64,000 nt of DNA from the NCBI GenBank assembly GCA_045591405.1, contig JAZNST010000051.1, positions 15,571 through 79,570 on the forward strand, written 5' to 3'. Source of the DNA: Ruminiclostridium sp. Lineage in GTDB: Bacteria > Bacillota > Clostridia > Oscillospirales > Ruminococcaceae. Numbering within the stretch: the first letter of the stretch is position 1; each line of letters starts with the position of its first letter. A model generated the notes under the pieces. That model did not search any database. It was given only the letters and a program-made list of their open reading frames with translations, and was not told where the DNA came from. The translations under genes and the position numbers were made by a program. Below, in pieces: positions 10,234 through 15,778 of the stretch.

Positions 10234-10330
10234 AAACACTGCTTTCACCGCCCTTCTATTCAGATTATAACCTGAAGCGTGTCCAAAAATACGGACTGAA
10301 TCCAACAACAATTTTCAAGCTTTTTGAGAA

Positions 10331-10366
10331 CAAAGAAAAACCGCTGAACCCCAAAAGGTTCAACGG
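10331..10366 (-). terminator. Intrinsic terminator downstream of tRNA-Leu
   Basis: On the minus strand, CCGTTGAACC/GGTTCAGCGG hairpin followed by TTTTTCTTTGTT. Confidence 0.6.
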
Positions 10367-10370
10367 AAGC

Positions 10371-10457
10371 TGGTGCCGCTGACCGGACTTGAACCGGTAC
10401 GGTATTTCTACCGAGGGATTTTAAGTCCCTTGTGTCTGCCTATTCCACCACAGCGGC
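10371..10457 (-). tRNA. tRNA-Leu (anticodon TAA), type II with long variable arm, CCA encoded
   Basis: Reverse complement is GCCGCTGTGGTGGAATAGGCAGACACAAGGGACTTAAAATCCCTCGGTAGAAATACCGTACCGGTTCAAGTCCGGTCAGCGGCACCA. It has a cloverleaf, a CTTAAAA anticodon loop and GGTTCAAGTCC T-arm. Confidence 0.9.
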
Positions 10458-10475
10458 GTCTTTGATTTGCAATTT

Positions 10476-10504
10476 ATTATATCACAACACAGGCGTACTG
10501 TCAA
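10476..10504 (-). promoter_or_regulatory. SigmaA-type promoter for tRNA-Leu
   Basis: On the minus strand, TTGACA, 17 nt, TATAAT, about 18 nt upstream of the tRNA 5' end. Confidence 0.6.
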
Positions 10505-10612
10505 GTGAAAAAAATTTTTTTAATTTATCGCTTTTAGGTCGTAAAGCGGCAAAGTAAGCGCATTTATGGGCATTATAGCTGTGTTTACAAAAAAATTTTT
10601 CAAAAAAAGGGG

Positions 10613-10640
10613 TTGACAAATCTAAAAAAAAGAGTAAAAT
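10613..10640 (+). promoter_or_regulatory. SigmaA-type promoter of the aro operon leader
   Basis: TTGACA (10613-10618), 16 nt, TAAAAT (10635-10640). An A/T-tract lies upstream. Confidence 0.6.
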
Positions 10641-10687
10641 AGCAATCGTAAGAGATGTCTCACTAACGAAGAAAGGAGTAAAAAATT

Positions 10688-10807
10688 ATGTCAGCTTTAT
10701 TTACAACAGCCTTTATATTCTTCTTTAGCTTTAGCTTTTATTTTAGCTACAAGTTTTATTTTGGTGCGAGAAAAAAGGTTGCTGAAAAAAGTATAGCTGC
10801 TGCGTGA
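10688..10807 (+). CDS. Candidate leader peptide, 39 aa, [39 protein letters not shown] (10 Phe, 3 Tyr)
   Basis: Too short for the ORF track. SD GAAAGGAG (10671-10678) sits 9 nt before ATG 10688. Phe/Tyr enrichment is specific to this frame. The ORF lies between the promoter and a terminator upstream of aroF. Confidence 0.6.
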
Positions 10808-10831
10808 TTTTTTATTCAACTCAGTAAATTT

Positions 10832-10871
10832 AAGCTTGTACTTGGGCAACCTTGTGCAAGCTTTTTTATTT
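10832..10871 (+). terminator. Intrinsic terminator (attenuator) in the aro leader
   Basis: AAGCTTGTAC (10832-10841) pairs with GTGCAAGCTT (10854-10863), 10 bp with one G-U. It is followed by TTTTTTATTT, 19 nt before the aroF start. Confidence 0.7.
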
Positions 10872-10889
10872 AAGAAAGGGAAAAAGATT

Positions 10890-11912
10890 ATGATTATCGT
10901 ATTAAAACAGGACGTAAACAAGAAGGCAGTCGATGAGCTTTGCTCGTACATTGAAGCACACGACATCAAGGTGAACGAGGTTATCGGTACACATAAGACT
11001 ATTATCGGTCTTATCGGTGACACACACAAAATTGACCTCGAAGCTATTCAGGCAAGAGACATCGTTGAATCCGTTCAGCGTGTTCAGGAGCCTTATAAGG
11101 CTGTAAACAGAAAGTTCCATCCCGAAGATACCGTTATTGAAATCGCAAACGGCGTAAAAATCGGCGACGGAAACGTATCGGTAATTGCAGGTCCTTGCTC
11201 GGTTGAAAGCGAAGAACAGATTATTGATACCTGTACAAAGGTTAAGGCAGCGGGCGCAAATCTTCTCAGAGGCGGTGCATTCAAGCCCAGAACCTCTCCT
11301 TACTCCTTCCAGGGTATGAAAGGCGAGGGTATCAAGCTTCTTCTCGAAGCTAAGAAGGCAACAGGTCTTCCTATCGTAACAGAGCTTATGTCGCTTGAAC
11401 ACCTTGATTTATTCGCTGACGTTGACGTTATTCAGATTGGCGCAAGAAATATGCAGAACTTCGAGCTTCTTAAAGAGATTGGCCGTTGTAACAAGCCTAT
11501 CCTTCTTAAAAGAGGTCTTGCAAATACAATTGAAGAGCTTCTTATGTCCGCTGAATATATTGCAGCCAGCGGTAACACAAACATTATGCTTTGCGAAAGA
11601 GGCGTAAGAACGTTTGAAACAGTTACAAGAAATACTCTTGATATTTCTGCAATCCCGGTTCTCAAATCCCTCACACACCTCCCTGTTGTTATCGATCCAA
11701 GCCACGCAACAGGCAGATATGAGCTTGTTGAGCCGCTTTCTATGGCAGCTGTTGCCGCAGGAGCCGACGCTCTTATCATCGAAGTTCACAACAATCCTCA
11801 GAAGGCGCTTTGCGACGGTGCTCAGTCGCTTACTCCCGAACACTTCGACAAGACAATGCAGAACTGCAACAAGATTGCAAAGGCACTTGATAAGAGAATA
11901 GGAACACTTTAA
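10890..11912 (+). CDS. aroF: 3-deoxy-7-phosphoheptulonate (DAHP) synthase, type I-beta, with N-terminal ferredoxin-like regulatory domain
   Basis: [18 protein letters not shown] and IGARNMQN motifs, plus a ~65-aa N-terminal extension as in Thermotoga-type enzymes. ATG 10890 has an AAGAAAGGG SD. The track start TTG 10836 lies inside the terminator hairpin. Confidence 0.9.
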
Positions 11913-11913
11913 T

Positions 11914-12948
11914 ATGAAAATACTGACCGTAAATGCAAGCAAATCGTATGATATAATAATAGGTAAGGGACTTCTTGAAAAGTCGGGAGAGCTTATCGGA
12001 AAGGTTTCTACTGCTAAAAAAGCGGTAATAATCACCGATGATATCGTTGACGGACTTTATTCAAAAAAGGTTGCGGCTTCTCTTGAAGAAAGCGGAATAA
12101 AATCGCTGAAGTTCGTTTTCCCCAACGGCGAAAAAAGTAAATCCCATGCTGTTTTACTTGAATTATACAGCTTTCTTGTCAAAAATGACGTTACAAGAGG
12201 CGATTTGCTTATTGCATTAGGCGGCGGAGTTACAGGCGACCTTGTGGGCTTTTGTGCGGCGACTTACCTCAGGGGAGTCGATTTCGTACAGATTCCCACT
12301 ACCCTGCTTGCTCAGGTTGATAGCTCCGTAGGCGGAAAAACGGCTGTAAATATCCCCGAAGGAAAAAACCTCATCGGCGCTTTTAAGCAGCCGCTTCTGG
12401 TTATTTCTGACGTTGATACGCTTTCAACTCTCAGCGATGAGATTTTTGCCGACGGAATGGGCGAGGTTGTGAAATACGGAATGATTCGCTCTTACACCCT
12501 TTTTGAAAAGCTTGAAAACGCAAACGTAAAGGATGACCTTGAAGATATAATTTACGAGTGCGTCGATATAAAAAGAGCCGTCGTTGAAAATGACGAGTTC
12601 GATACAGGCGAACGAATGATTCTGAATTTCGGTCACACTCTTGGACACGCACTTGAAAAAAAGTTCAATTTCAGCGGTATTTCACACGGAAAAGCTGTTG
12701 CTGTGGGAATGATGCTTGTTACTGAAAAGTTTGCGGACGAGTCAACCGCAAACAGACTCAGAAGCTGTCTTATTGCAAACGACCTCCCTGTTGTTGCAAA
12801 AGCGGAATTATCCGAGCTTTACGAGCTTTCGGTAAACGACAAAAAGCGACTTGCCGAAAAAATAAGAATTATCGTCTGCAAGCAAATAGGAAAAGCAGAA
12901 ATTATAACAATGTCAATGTCTGAGTTCCGTTCTTTTTTAGGAGTCTGA
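11914..12948 (+). CDS. aroB: 3-dehydroquinate synthase
   Basis: 344 aa with GGGVTGDLVGFCAATYLRG and HTLGHALE motifs. 1-nt gap after aroF. Confidence 0.9.
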   Translation: MKILTVNASKSYDIIIGKGLLEKSGELIGKVSTAKKAVIITDDIVDGLYSKKVAASLEESGIKSLKFVFPNGEKSKSHAVLLELYSFLVKNDVTRGDLLIALGGGVTGDLVGFCAATYLRGVDFVQIPTTLLAQVDSSVGGKTAVNIPEGKNLIGAFKQPLLVISDVDTLSTLSDEIFADGMGEVVKYGMIRSYTLFEKLENANVKDDLEDIIYECVDIKRAVVENDEFDTGERMILNFGHTLGHALEKKFNFSGISHGKAVAVGMMLVTEKFADESTANRLRSCLIANDLPVVAKAELSELYELSVNDKKRLAEKIRIIVCKQIGKAEIITMSMSEFRSFLGV

Positions 12949-12949
12949 A

Positions 12950-14161
12950 ATGGATATAAAAATAACGCCGTCAAGGCTCAAGGGAAGACTTACTGTCCCT
13001 TCGTCAAAAAGCATTTCTCACCGTGCGCTCATCTGTGCGGCTCTGTGCGACGGAACAAGCGTAATAAAAAATACGCTTGAGTGCGACGATACGGAGGCTA
13101 CGATAAACGCTCTTACTGCCCTTGGGGCAACAATAGCGGTAAACGGAGCTGAAATAACTGTCAATGGAATCAAAAACGCACCCCAAAACGCTGAAATCGA
13201 CTGTAATGAAAGCGGCTCAACGCTGAGATTCATTATGCCGATTGCGGCGGCTTTTGGCGTAAACGCTTCTTTCAGCGGAAAAGGAAAGCTTCCGTCAAGA
13301 CCTATAACCGAATACTTTACAGAGCTTTCAAAAAATGGTATAATATTTACTGCAAAAGAAATGCCCTATAAAATCGAAGGCAGACTTATGGGCGGAGAAT
13401 ACAGAATTGCAGGAAACGTTTCGTCCCAGTTTATAACGGGACTTTTGTTTGCTTTGCCGCTACTTAACGGGGATAGTAAAATTATTCTCACCTCCCCTCT
13501 TGAATCAAAGCCTTACGTTGATATTACAATCGCTTGTCTTAATTCGTTTGGCGTAGCCGTAGAAGAAACCGAATACGGCTATTTTGTTAAAGGCAATCAA
13601 CGCTACCACGCAACTGATTACAGCGTTGAAGCTGACTATTCAAACGCCGCTTTCTTCCTCGTGGCTAACGCTCTTGGAAGTGACGTTATCCTTGAAAATC
13701 TTAATGAAAAGAGTGTTCAGGGGGACGCTGAAATTATGAACGTTGTAAACAGCTACAACGGAAAAGCCTTTGATATAAGCGCTTCACAGATACCTGACCT
13801 TGTTCCTGTGCTGACTGTTCTTGCTTCCCTTTCGGTAGGAACATCAACTATTTTCAACGCAGAACGACTCAGAATAAAAGAATGTGACCGTCTTGCTGCA
13901 ATAACTGACGTTCTTTCTACGCTTGGCGCTAAGATTCACGAATACAATGACAAGCTTGTTGTTGAAGGCGTGGATATGCTCCAAGGCGGAACCTGTGACA
14001 GCTATAATGACCACAGAATACCAATGAGTATTGCAGTTGCCGCTACAAGAGCGACGCAACCGATTATCATAAAAAACGCAGAATGCGTTTCAAAATCATA
14101 TCCTCAGTTCTGGGAGGATTATAAAAAAATGGGAGGAATTGTTGATGTCGTCAACGCTTAA
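12950..14161 (+). CDS. aroA: 3-phosphoshikimate 1-carboxyvinyltransferase (EPSP synthase)
   Basis: LKGRLTVPSSKSISHRAL, ESGSTLRF and RIKECDR motifs. 1-nt gap after aroB. Confidence 0.9.
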   Translation: MDIKITPSRLKGRLTVPSSKSISHRALICAALCDGTSVIKNTLECDDTEATINALTALGATIAVNGAEITVNGIKNAPQNAEIDCNESGSTLRFIMPIAAAFGVNASFSGKGKLPSRPITEYFTELSKNGIIFTAKEMPYKIEGRLMGGEYRIAGNVSSQFITGLLFALPLLNGDSKIILTSPLESKPYVDITIACLNSFGVAVEETEYGYFVKGNQRYHATDYSVEADYSNAAFFLVANALGSDVILENLNEKSVQGDAEIMNVVNSYNGKAFDISASQIPDLVPVLTVLASLSVGTSTIFNAERLRIKECDRLAAITDVLSTLGAKIHEYNDKLVVEGVDMLQGGTCDSYNDHRIPMSIAVAATRATQPIIIKNAECVSKSYPQFWEDYKKMGGIVDVVNA

Positions 14162-15230
14162 ATTCGGCTCTTTTTCAATGACAATATTCGGTGAATCTCA
14201 CGGAAATGCCATCGGTGTGACAATCGACGGTCTTCCTTCGGGGTTTGCCGTTGATTTTGATGCTGTAAATGCTTTTATGGCTCGTCGTGCTCCTCGAAAA
14301 GACGGAACAAGTACGTTCAGAAACGAAAAAGACGCATTTGAAATTTTAAGCGGAATAACAGACTCAAAGACCAACGGCGCTCCGCTTTGCGCTGTGATAA
14401 AGAATACAGATCAACATTCTGCCGATTATAAAAGCGTTAGCTATCTTGCAAGGCCCGGACACGCCGATTACACAGGGTCAGTAAGATATAATTATTCAAA
14501 CGATCTTCGTGGCGGCGGTCATTTTTCGGGCCGACTCACTGCCCCGCTTGTTTTTGCGGGTGCAATATGCGGTCAGCTTCTTGAAGCGGAAAAAATTTAT
14601 TCGGGAGCGCATATTGCTTCTATTATGAACGAGGCTGACAAACAATTTGATCCCGTGAACGTAACCAAAGCTGAGCTTGATTCGGTAAAAAGCTCATATC
14701 TTCCGCTTATTGATAAAGAAAAGGACGCTAAAATGCGTGAGATTATCTTAGAAGCGTCTAAAAATCTTGATTCTGTCGGCGGAACGATTGAATGTGCAAT
14801 CATCGGCGTTCCCACAGGGGTTGGCTCGCCTATCTTTGACGGGATTGAAAACAGGATAAGTCAGATTGTGTTCGGAATACCTGCAATCAAGGGAATTGAG
14901 TTCGGAGTGGGATTTGAAGTCGCAAAGCTTCACGGAAGCGAAAATAACGACGAGTTTTTTATTGAAAACGAAGAAATAAAAACAAGGACGAATAATTGCG
15001 GCGGAATTCTCGGCGGAATTTCAGATTCAATGCCTATTATTTTCAGAGTGGCTGTAAAGCCAACGCCGTCTATTGCAAAAGCTCAGAAAACGGTTGACTA
15101 CAAGAGCGTAACAGAAGAAACGCTCGAAATAAAGGGCAGACACGACCCTTGTATCGTCCCAAGAGCTGTTCCGTGCGTTGAAGCGGCGGCAAATATTGCA
15201 ATCTACACACTTCTCAAGGAGAGCTTATGA
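14145..15230 (+). CDS. aroC: Chorismate synthase
   Basis: FGESHG and ARPGHADY motifs. ATG 14145 has GGGAGGA 8 nt upstream. The gene overlaps the aroA end. Confidence 0.9.
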   Translation: MSSTLKFGSFSMTIFGESHGNAIGVTIDGLPSGFAVDFDAVNAFMARRAPRKDGTSTFRNEKDAFEILSGITDSKTNGAPLCAVIKNTDQHSADYKSVSYLARPGHADYTGSVRYNYSNDLRGGGHFSGRLTAPLVFAGAICGQLLEAEKIYSGAHIASIMNEADKQFDPVNVTKAELDSVKSSYLPLIDKEKDAKMREIILEASKNLDSVGGTIECAIIGVPTGVGSPIFDGIENRISQIVFGIPAIKGIEFGVGFEVAKLHGSENNDEFFIENEEIKTRTNNCGGILGGISDSMPIIFRVAVKPTPSIAKAQKTVDYKSVTEETLEIKGRHDPCIVPRAVPCVEAAANIAIYTLLKESL

Positions 15231-15778
15231 TAAACGAAGCGCCAAAAATCACAGTTGAAGACAAGCTTGATATACAATTTTATATCTGCTTTTTGTTAGA
15301 TCAGCTAGGAAAGCTTACTGAAAACCAACTTTCAGATATAATTACTGAATGCGAAACAGTTAATTACTACGATTATCTTGAGGCGTTAAGTATTGTCGTT
15401 GAAAAAAAGTTGGCTGAAAAAAGCGAAGAAAAGTCTGAGCTTGTGTATAGCCTTCTGCCTCAAGGCAAAATGATGTCTGAGGAATTTTATCAGCATATTC
15501 CCCTTTCTGTCCGTGAAAAGTCAGTTGAATACGGGAAAAAGGTCCTTGAGCTTTCAGAGGTTGAAAGAGCGCTCCAGTGCAGAATTGAACGAACACAAGA
15601 AGCGCACTGCTTTGTTACCGTCAGGTTTATTAACGAAATGGGCGGTCCTGATCTTGTAAATCTCAGGCTTTACGCTCCGAATCTTGAAGAAGCAAAGAAA
15701 ATGAAGGAGCGTTTTTACGAACGCCCGTCTGAAATTATCACAAAAATAATGCAACTGTTTATAAAGGATAATTATTGA
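15227..15778 (+). CDS. Hypothetical protein, DUF4364-like (winged-helix-like N-terminus)
   Basis: 183 aa. Its start overlaps the aroC stop (ATGA). The resemblance to the clostridial DUF4364 family is from memory only. Confidence 0.45.
   Translation: MINEAPKITVEDKLDIQFYICFLLDQLGKLTENQLSDIITECETVNYYDYLEALSIVVEKKLAEKSEEKSELVYSLLPQGKMMSEEFYQHIPLSVREKSVEYGKKVLELSEVERALQCRIERTQEAHCFVTVRFINEMGGPDLVNLRLYAPNLEEAKKMKERFYERPSEIITKIMQLFIKDNY

Follow-up and report, generated by a model that had tools for sequence, protein, structure and literature searches.

The aro operon and its leader

The DNA analyzed here, called the window, is a stretch of 64,000 nucleotides (nt) from Ruminiclostridium sp. (contig JAZNST010000051.1, positions 15,571 to 79,570 of the forward strand). 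It contains the shikimate pathway operon aroF-aroB-aroA-aroC, and our subject is the leader between the promoter of this operon and aroF. The leader holds a short open reading frame (ORF) rich in phenylalanine (Phe) and tyrosine (Tyr) codons, which is followed by an intrinsic terminator. We read the element as a classical ribosome-mediated transcription attenuator of the operon that would sense the charging of Phe- and Tyr-tRNA, and put the probability of this reading at about 0.85. It is supported by the anatomy of the sequence, by alternative RNA folds, and by the conservation and co-variation of all the parts across relatives. The positions of the features are given in Table 1.

Table 1. 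Features of the aro leader and operon in the window.
Feature	Position	Strand	Description
Promoter of aro operon	10613-10640	+	sigma-A/sigma-70 type; -35 TTGACA 10613-10618, 16-nt spacer, -10 TAAAAT 10635-10640
Leader Shine-Dalgarno (SD) sequence	10671-10678	+	GAAAGGAG; 9 nt 5' of ATG at 10688
1:2 hairpin	10676-10817	+	anti-antiterminator, possibly pause hairpin; -42.2 kcal/mol
Leader peptide ORF	10688-10807	+	39 codons and TGA (stop 10805-10807)
Region 1	10692-10714	+	leader codons 2-9; predicted to pair with region 2 unless covered by a ribosome
Regulatory codon run	10700-10762	+	10 Phe and 3 Tyr codons within codons 5-25; expected stall site when Phe-/Tyr-tRNA is scarce
Region 2 (switch segment)	10774-10799	+	leader codons 29-38; predicted partner is region 1 or region 3
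Region 3	10832-10852	+	terminator 5' arm plus loop
Intrinsic terminator (3:4)	10832-10871	+	stem 10832-10841/10854-10863; inner G-C pairs 10844-10845/10850-10851; -17.3 kcal/mol; U-tract 10864-10871 UUUUAUUU
aroF SD	10874-10881	+	GAAAGGGA
aroF	10890-11912	+	first regulated gene; type I-beta 3-deoxy-D-arabino-heptulosonate 7-phosphate (DAHP) synthase with N-terminal ferredoxin-like (FXD) regulatory domain
aroB	11914-12948	+	
aroA	12950-14161	+	
aroC	about 14139-15230	+	
DUF4364 gene	15227-15778	+	overlaps aroC stop codon by 4 nt

An earlier note on this DNA had proposed a leader-peptide attenuator, and the promoter, SD, ORF, Phe and Tyr counts, hairpin, and aroF start were all found where it had placed them. 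In a promoter scan of the window, the promoter matched the consensus in 11 of 12 positions, and transcription is predicted to start at about 10647, some 40 nt 5' of the leader ORF. The same scan showed no second promoter on the + strand 3' of the leader. The promoter at 10613 is the sole plausible one for the operon because the upstream neighbor is a divergent tRNA-Leu(UAA) gene.

That tRNA gene (10371-10457, - strand) adjoins the aro leader and is transcribed divergently from the leader promoter. Its own promoter, which runs from 10504 to 10476, is TG-extended and matches the consensus perfectly (12/12), and it has its own terminator at 10366-10341.

The aromatic codons of the leader are specific to one frame, which bears out the earlier claim. 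Frame +1 gives 2 Phe and frame +2 runs into early stops. The best 12-codon stretch contains 8 aromatic codons, compared to a maximum of 7 in 100 dinucleotide shuffles. A window-wide scan for leader-like amino acid runs, the output of which was noisy, gave no second attenuator candidate; the other window stretches with at least 7 aromatic codons in 12 all lie largely or wholly within long ORFs. The same peptide, letter for letter, appears in the protein collection, where it is a called gene without a name.

The terminator hairpin begins 24 nt 3' of the leader stop codon and is separated from the aroF ATG by 26 nt. A simple terminator scan missed it because the loop is 12 nt long and contains two inner G-C pairs. 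The stem described in the earlier note was correct, but the tail quoted with it, TTTTTTATTT, includes the final two bases of the stem, and the part that is unpaired is the U-tract listed in Table 1.

Conservation of the leader across relatives

The comparison was conducted with aroF orthologues from 80 species-representative GTDB genomes and from 80 metagenome contigs, 76 of which gave usable loci, for a total of 156 loci. Most of the genomes are labeled as Clostridia, and the names of several refer to Ruminococcus, Oscillospiraceae, Acutalibacteraceae, or Lachnospiraceae. The AroF orthologues were 60-76% identical to the protein of the window, and the closest relatives were L001 (76%) and L002 (72%), both from genomes. 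A locus was scored as having the complete arrangement if aroF was preceded by an ORF of up to 60 amino acids (aa) that had an SD and start codon and 6 or more aromatic codons in 12, and if a terminator of -8 kcal/mol or lower followed no more than 90 nt from the stop codon of that ORF. By this definition, it was found in 49 of the 80 genomes and 35 of the 76 metagenome loci, which gave 82 non-redundant leaders, including that of the window. The SD (a core of at least 4 nt), the start codon, and the terminator are present in all 82 since they were selection criteria; the start codon is nearly always ATG.

The leaders encode 14-47 aa (median 31) with a median of 9 aromatic codons. The terminators, with a median energy of -19.5 kcal/mol, begin 13-79 nt past the leader stop codon, and a median of 43 nt separates them from the start of aroF. 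A sigma-70-like promoter was found within 130 nt upstream of 69/79 leaders, compared to 2/79 in a coding sequence control, with a median of 32 nt from the end of the -10 box to the leader start. Stretches with at least 7 aromatic codons in 12 were seen on the + strand of 44/81 upstream regions and on the - strand of 4/81. Members of the family come from genomes of the Oscillospirales, Lachnospirales, Christensenellales, and Peptostreptococcales type.

These leaders also show a clear signature of coding. Across the 82 leaders, 772 aromatic codons lie in frame, compared to 231 and 260 in the other two frames, and the codons used are TTT (365), TTC (79), TAT (160), TAC (151), and TGG (17). No metagenome relative above 66% AroF identity was available for substitution analysis, and related pairs within the family were used instead. 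In 27 such pairs, aromatic status was retained at 218 of 276 aligned aromatic positions, and the retained positions include 39 synonymous changes and 28 swaps among Phe, Tyr, and Trp. Of the non-aromatic codons in these pairs, 242 of 394 differ. About half of the 156 loci have thus retained the ORF with its SD and ATG, its frame, and its Phe/Tyr run upstream of aroF while synonymous codons vary, as a check proposed in the earlier note had anticipated.

A few non-aromatic residues are also conserved, namely FAAE before the run and FTAEK or DFCC near the C-terminus (L024, L033, L047, L053, L057, L059, and others; the counterpart in the window is 10774-10799). These residues map onto RNA regions 1 and 2 (GCAGC and UUUUGCUGC), which pair with the conserved terminator arm GCAGUGAAA. 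Conservation of the peptide at FAAE and at FTAEK/DFCC therefore seems to be driven by RNA pairing.

Three of the sampled loci call for separate mention. In L001, about 230 nt are inserted between the leader terminator and aroF (about 1270-1500), and the insert holds a long inverted repeat (about 1300-1480) that could be an insertion resembling a miniature inverted-repeat transposable element or a second regulatory element. L070, a metagenome-assembled genome (MAG) labeled Victivallaceae, has a comparable aromatic run, SFYYFFSCFAFYF, with a strong terminator behind it (-22.3 kcal/mol), upstream of aroF (84-368). A leader of this kind in a MAG with that label suggests horizontal transfer or mis-binning. 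In L040 (Agathobaculum butyriciproducens), aroF is not preceded by an aromatic leader.

Alternative folds of the leader RNA

The leader region folds with -64 kcal/mol (z = -2.9), and the ribosome-free fold consists of the long 1:2 hairpin plus the terminator. The outer helix of the 1:2 hairpin (10676-10691/10802-10817) buries the 3' end of the leader SD, the spacer, and the AUG. The earlier note had not described this hairpin. Inside it, region 1 pairs with region 2 through two helices, 10692-10702/10789-10799 and 10704-10714/10774-10784. A small helix (10718-10722/10768-10772) and an apical helix (10727-10736/10745-10755) complete the hairpin.

The competing antiterminator (2:3) is formed by 10790-10798/10833-10842 and 10776-10783/10845-10852 and has a predicted energy of -23.5 kcal/mol, including an inner hairpin. 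The pairing put forward in the earlier note, 10789-10798 with 10833-10843, does exist, but it is only part of this longer structure, to which the second helix is added.

Folding was calculated for a nascent transcript that ended at 10853, before region 4 (the 3' arm of the terminator) is made, with ribosomes modeled as masks. The probability of the antiterminator was 0.91 with 10700-10765 masked. It was 0.56 with a ribosome stalled at codon 9, 0.82 with a ribosome stalled at codon 13, and 0.92 with queued ribosomes. Masking 10790-10820, as for a ribosome at the stop codon, lowered it to 0.01, and without a ribosome it was 0.00.

Alternation at equilibrium was also considered and was ruled out, as the full-length RNA keeps the terminator in every ribosome state with a probability of 0.4-0.98. 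The alternation between terminator and antiterminator that the earlier note had expected under the two masks therefore held on nascent RNA (0.91 and 0.01), but not on full-length RNA at equilibrium. Since the terminator always wins in the full-length RNA, the switch must be kinetic and co-transcriptional. Kinetic switching of this sort is accepted for trpL.

The predicted RNA switch at the family level

The same alternation was seen when the family was examined as a whole. At 52 loci, the probability that the terminator 5' arm pairs with upstream sequence averaged 0.73 with a ribosome stalled in the middle of the run; it dropped to 0.39 when the ribosome was placed at the stop codon and to 0.54 when the upstream sequence was shuffled. 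The value for the stalled ribosome differed from that for shuffled upstream sequence (Wilcoxon p = 3e-8) and from that for the stop codon (p = 5e-8).

Regions 2 and 3 also fit each other better within a locus than between loci. The 2:3 duplex had -14.1 kcal/mol for regions of the same locus compared to -10.6 kcal/mol across loci (p = 1.9e-11), and the own-locus fit was in the top 5% for 39% of loci. The corresponding values for the 1:2 duplex were -13.2 and -9.8 kcal/mol (p = 1.7e-11). The footprint of a terminating ribosome overlaps region 2 to some extent in 79% of loci and by at least half in 44%.

Proposed mechanism

The anatomy of the leader predicts that the ORF is translated, that ribosomes stall in it, and that read-through into the operon responds to Phe and Tyr. 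A ribosome would load on the leader ORF as the leader is still being transcribed. If Phe- or Tyr-tRNA runs short, it would stall in the run of 13 Phe/Tyr codons, and trailing ribosomes may queue behind it. The stalled ribosome would cover region 1 and so leave region 2 free to pair with 10833-10852 of region 3 before region 4 (10854-10863) is made. This 2:3 pairing would block the terminator, and polymerase would continue into aroF.

When charged tRNAs are plentiful, the ribosome would instead reach the TGA and mask the 3' half of region 2. Region 3 would then pair with region 4, and transcription would end at the U-tract. A transcript that is not translated would form the 1:2 hairpin and is also expected to terminate. 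A mixed Phe/Tyr(/Trp) run would suit a pathway that is common to these amino acids. The attenuator mechanism itself is textbook and no new mechanism is revealed here, but this version of it is uncatalogued.

Several observations weigh against this reading. One is the equilibrium result given above, and another is that the element is missing from roughly half of the loci with an aroF orthologue. If a single ribosome halts late in the run, for example at F19, region 1 stays uncovered, and the thermodynamic model then gives the 1:2 hairpin plus terminator unless trailing ribosomes queue. In the window, the footprint of a ribosome at the stop codon (-15 to +14) extends over only some 45% of region 2. 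Also, the antiterminator of the window alone is not significantly better than in shuffled controls, 43% of which reached the observed value, and the window ranked 11th of 81 in the cross-locus 2:3 test. The statistical support is thus at the level of the family. On the other side, every refutation test listed with the original proposal of an attenuator that could be computed came out in its favor.

Genes downstream of the leader

The product of aroF matches PF00793 at 1.5e-80 and PF18152 at 2.5e-19. DAHP synthases of the Thermotoga type are known to be under allosteric feedback through the FXD domain, and it is probable that such feedback on AroF would add to the leader-based control. The DUF4364 gene is probably the co-translated last gene of the operon.

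Searches for known RNA and protein families

Known regulators were sought with the covariance models of Rfam. A scan of 10300-11000 that retained E-values up to 10 gave only a tRNA above threshold and no T-box, riboswitch, Phe_leader, or other leader model. At gathering thresholds, neither the window as a whole nor 20 related loci gave a T-box or leader family; the hits were tRNAs only, plus an unrelated small RNA (sRNA) in L040. The latter is a match to SpF59/ldcC (62.9 bits) at 257-320 on the - strand, about 1.2 kb upstream of aroF. The attenuator proposal requires that no T-box or other leader model explain the leader, and none did.

The Clostridium-PBP RNA model had a weak match at 10629-10690, with 28 bits, far below the gathering score (94). 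The match is confined to the -10 box, the SD, and the ATG, and it reflects generic similarity of promoter and ribosome-binding site (RBS) rather than membership in that family.

Four leader peptides were also searched against the hidden Markov models of NCBIfam with E-values up to 10, and no family was matched. Literature searches turned up no description of this leader family in Clostridia.

Alternative explanations

One possible explanation is that this stretch is not translated and serves as a structured leader or small RNA, either constitutive or responsive to a protein or metabolite, and that the ORF is a by-product of the U-rich strand of a hairpin. The unusually stable folding of the leader (-64 kcal/mol, z = -2.9) fits this idea, as does the pairing of the U-rich strand with an A-rich strand in a 1:2 hairpin that buries the SD and AUG. 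However, the aromatic codons are strongly frame-specific over the 82 loci, and TAT and TAC are used about equally. Aromatic identity survives synonymous changes and swaps between Phe and Tyr while neighboring codons diverge, and no aptamer-like conserved structure or Rfam match was found. The SD and start codon are correctly spaced in all 82 leaders, and though these were selected for, they occur jointly with the run and terminator at about half of the loci. We consider an untranslated leader highly improbable.

Another possible explanation is that the ORF encodes a functional small hydrophobic peptide, perhaps a membrane peptide, with its own terminator, and that aroF is expressed by leaky read-through or in response to some other signal. 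Gene callers do predict the peptide, it has an entry in the protein collection, and it is hydrophobic with a length close to that of a transmembrane helix. Its homologues, however, vary from 14 to 47 aa, and apart from their aromatic composition, all they have in common are the short motifs located where the RNA pairs; the four that were searched matched no family of the Pfam or NCBIfam kind. In addition, aroF always follows the element directly, at a median distance of 43 nt from the terminator, and in the window no promoter intervenes. This is the least likely of the alternatives and can be given hardly any weight.

The upstream ORF could also act at another level, such as Rho-dependent polarity, translational coupling, occlusion of the aroF RBS, or arrest by the nascent chain. 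Equilibrium folding of the full-length RNA never favors the antiterminator, which would agree with such a role, and aromatic runs could in principle slow elongation themselves. Against this, a strong intrinsic terminator is present in all 82 leaders (as a selection criterion), and regions 2 and 3 co-vary. The aroF SD lies outside the alternative stems, although the ribosome-free minimum free energy fold weakly pairs part of the U-tract with 10823-10828, and the leader sequences are too variable for a specific arrest peptide. Control at another level is the least improbable of the alternatives, yet we still regard it as very unlikely. Ribosome-mediated attenuation of transcription in response to Phe- and Tyr-tRNA charging is therefore the reading that we prefer.

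Significance of the leader family

We lean slightly toward the broader view that the window holds one member of a large, uncatalogued family of Phe/Tyr(/Trp) attenuators, through which gut and rumen Clostridia would predominantly control entry into the shikimate pathway. The family is notable mainly for this wide occurrence. If the view is true, ribosome-mediated attenuation would be mainstream in a major class of Firmicutes and not a specialty of proteobacteria and actinobacteria. If confirmed, many abundant gut and rumen Clostridia would gate the first shikimate step by a translated Phe/Tyr sensor, a regulatory point relevant to the production of aromatic metabolites by gut microbes. The family would also offer an annotation rule for dozens of small "hypothetical" ORFs, and a compact natural Phe/Tyr-responsive switch could be used in the engineering of anaerobes.

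Comparison with known systems

The leader peptides of E. coli pheL-pheA and pheM-pheST belong, like trpL, hisL, and leuL, to a class of attenuators with a four-region architecture. The element of the window has in common with the pheL/trpL class a promoter-proximal SD-ATG ORF, a run of codons for the end product, the predicted 1:2, 2:3, and 3:4 helices, and a terminator before the first structural gene. In that class, the stop codon is also sited such that a terminating ribosome masks region 2, and in the window such a ribosome would mask part of it. In contrast, there is no sequence or covariance-model similarity to the pheL class, and the hosts are Clostridia rather than a gammaproteobacterium. 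The element would control the common shikimate pathway and not the Phe branch as in pheL. Its run mixes Phe and Tyr (with Trp in some relatives), and the leader is longer, with 39 codons of which 13 are aromatic.

Control of aromatic amino acid synthesis in Firmicutes is usually ascribed to T-boxes (Rfam RF00230), TRAP, or repressors. T-boxes and TRAP share with the present element a terminator/antiterminator output, and T-boxes also share the signal of tRNA charging. Unlike a T-box, however, the leader of the window lacks a specifier loop, a T-box sequence, and any structure for the binding of tRNA, and its sensor would be the translating ribosome.

The earlier note contrasted the element with the usual control in Firmicutes and overstated how rare such leaders are, since leader-peptide attenuators have been predicted for Firmicutes his operons and for aroF of Acholeplasma. 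His leaders were predicted in the Bacillus cereus group, C. difficile, other Peptostreptococcaceae, and Erysipelotrichales (PMC9413887), and hisS/hisZ leaders were predicted in bacilli (PMC2965389). These are also classical attenuators that replace T-boxes or repressors, and comparative evidence of the same sort led to their identification. They differ in having runs of His codons, in preceding his operons, and in sequences that are unrelated to the aro leader.

The uORFC-13-1 motif lies upstream of aroF in Acholeplasma and environmental sequences, and Phe-dependent attenuation was predicted for it (Brewer et al. 2021, PMC8632094). It comprises 24 sequences with "at least one" Phe codon (PMC8632094). 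Going by its description only, it shares with the present family a promoter, an RBS, a start codon, a U-run coding for Phe, a terminator, and aroF, and its lineage is related to Firmicutes. By the same description, the present family differs in its dense Phe/Tyr runs and in its spread over several orders of Clostridia.

In C. difficile, an orphan premature termination event with no known riboregulator was mapped in the aroF 5' untranslated region (Fuchs et al. 2021, PMC8237595). This event may be due to the same kind of leader, and the family described here is a candidate explanation for it.

The closest functional analogue with experimental support is aroR of C. glutamicum, as far as it is summarized in PMC11802643. 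According to that summary, the aroR leader (Phe-Tyr-Phe) attenuates aroF, and read-through rises under Phe limitation (Neshat et al. 2014). The two systems have in common a Phe/Tyr leader, a DAHP synthase operon, and ribosome stalling, which is predicted in the case of the window. They are likened in function only, since aroR, as described there, is actinobacterial, has a Phe-Tyr-Phe triplet compared to about 9-13 aromatic codons here, and precedes a different DAHP synthase in a different operon context.

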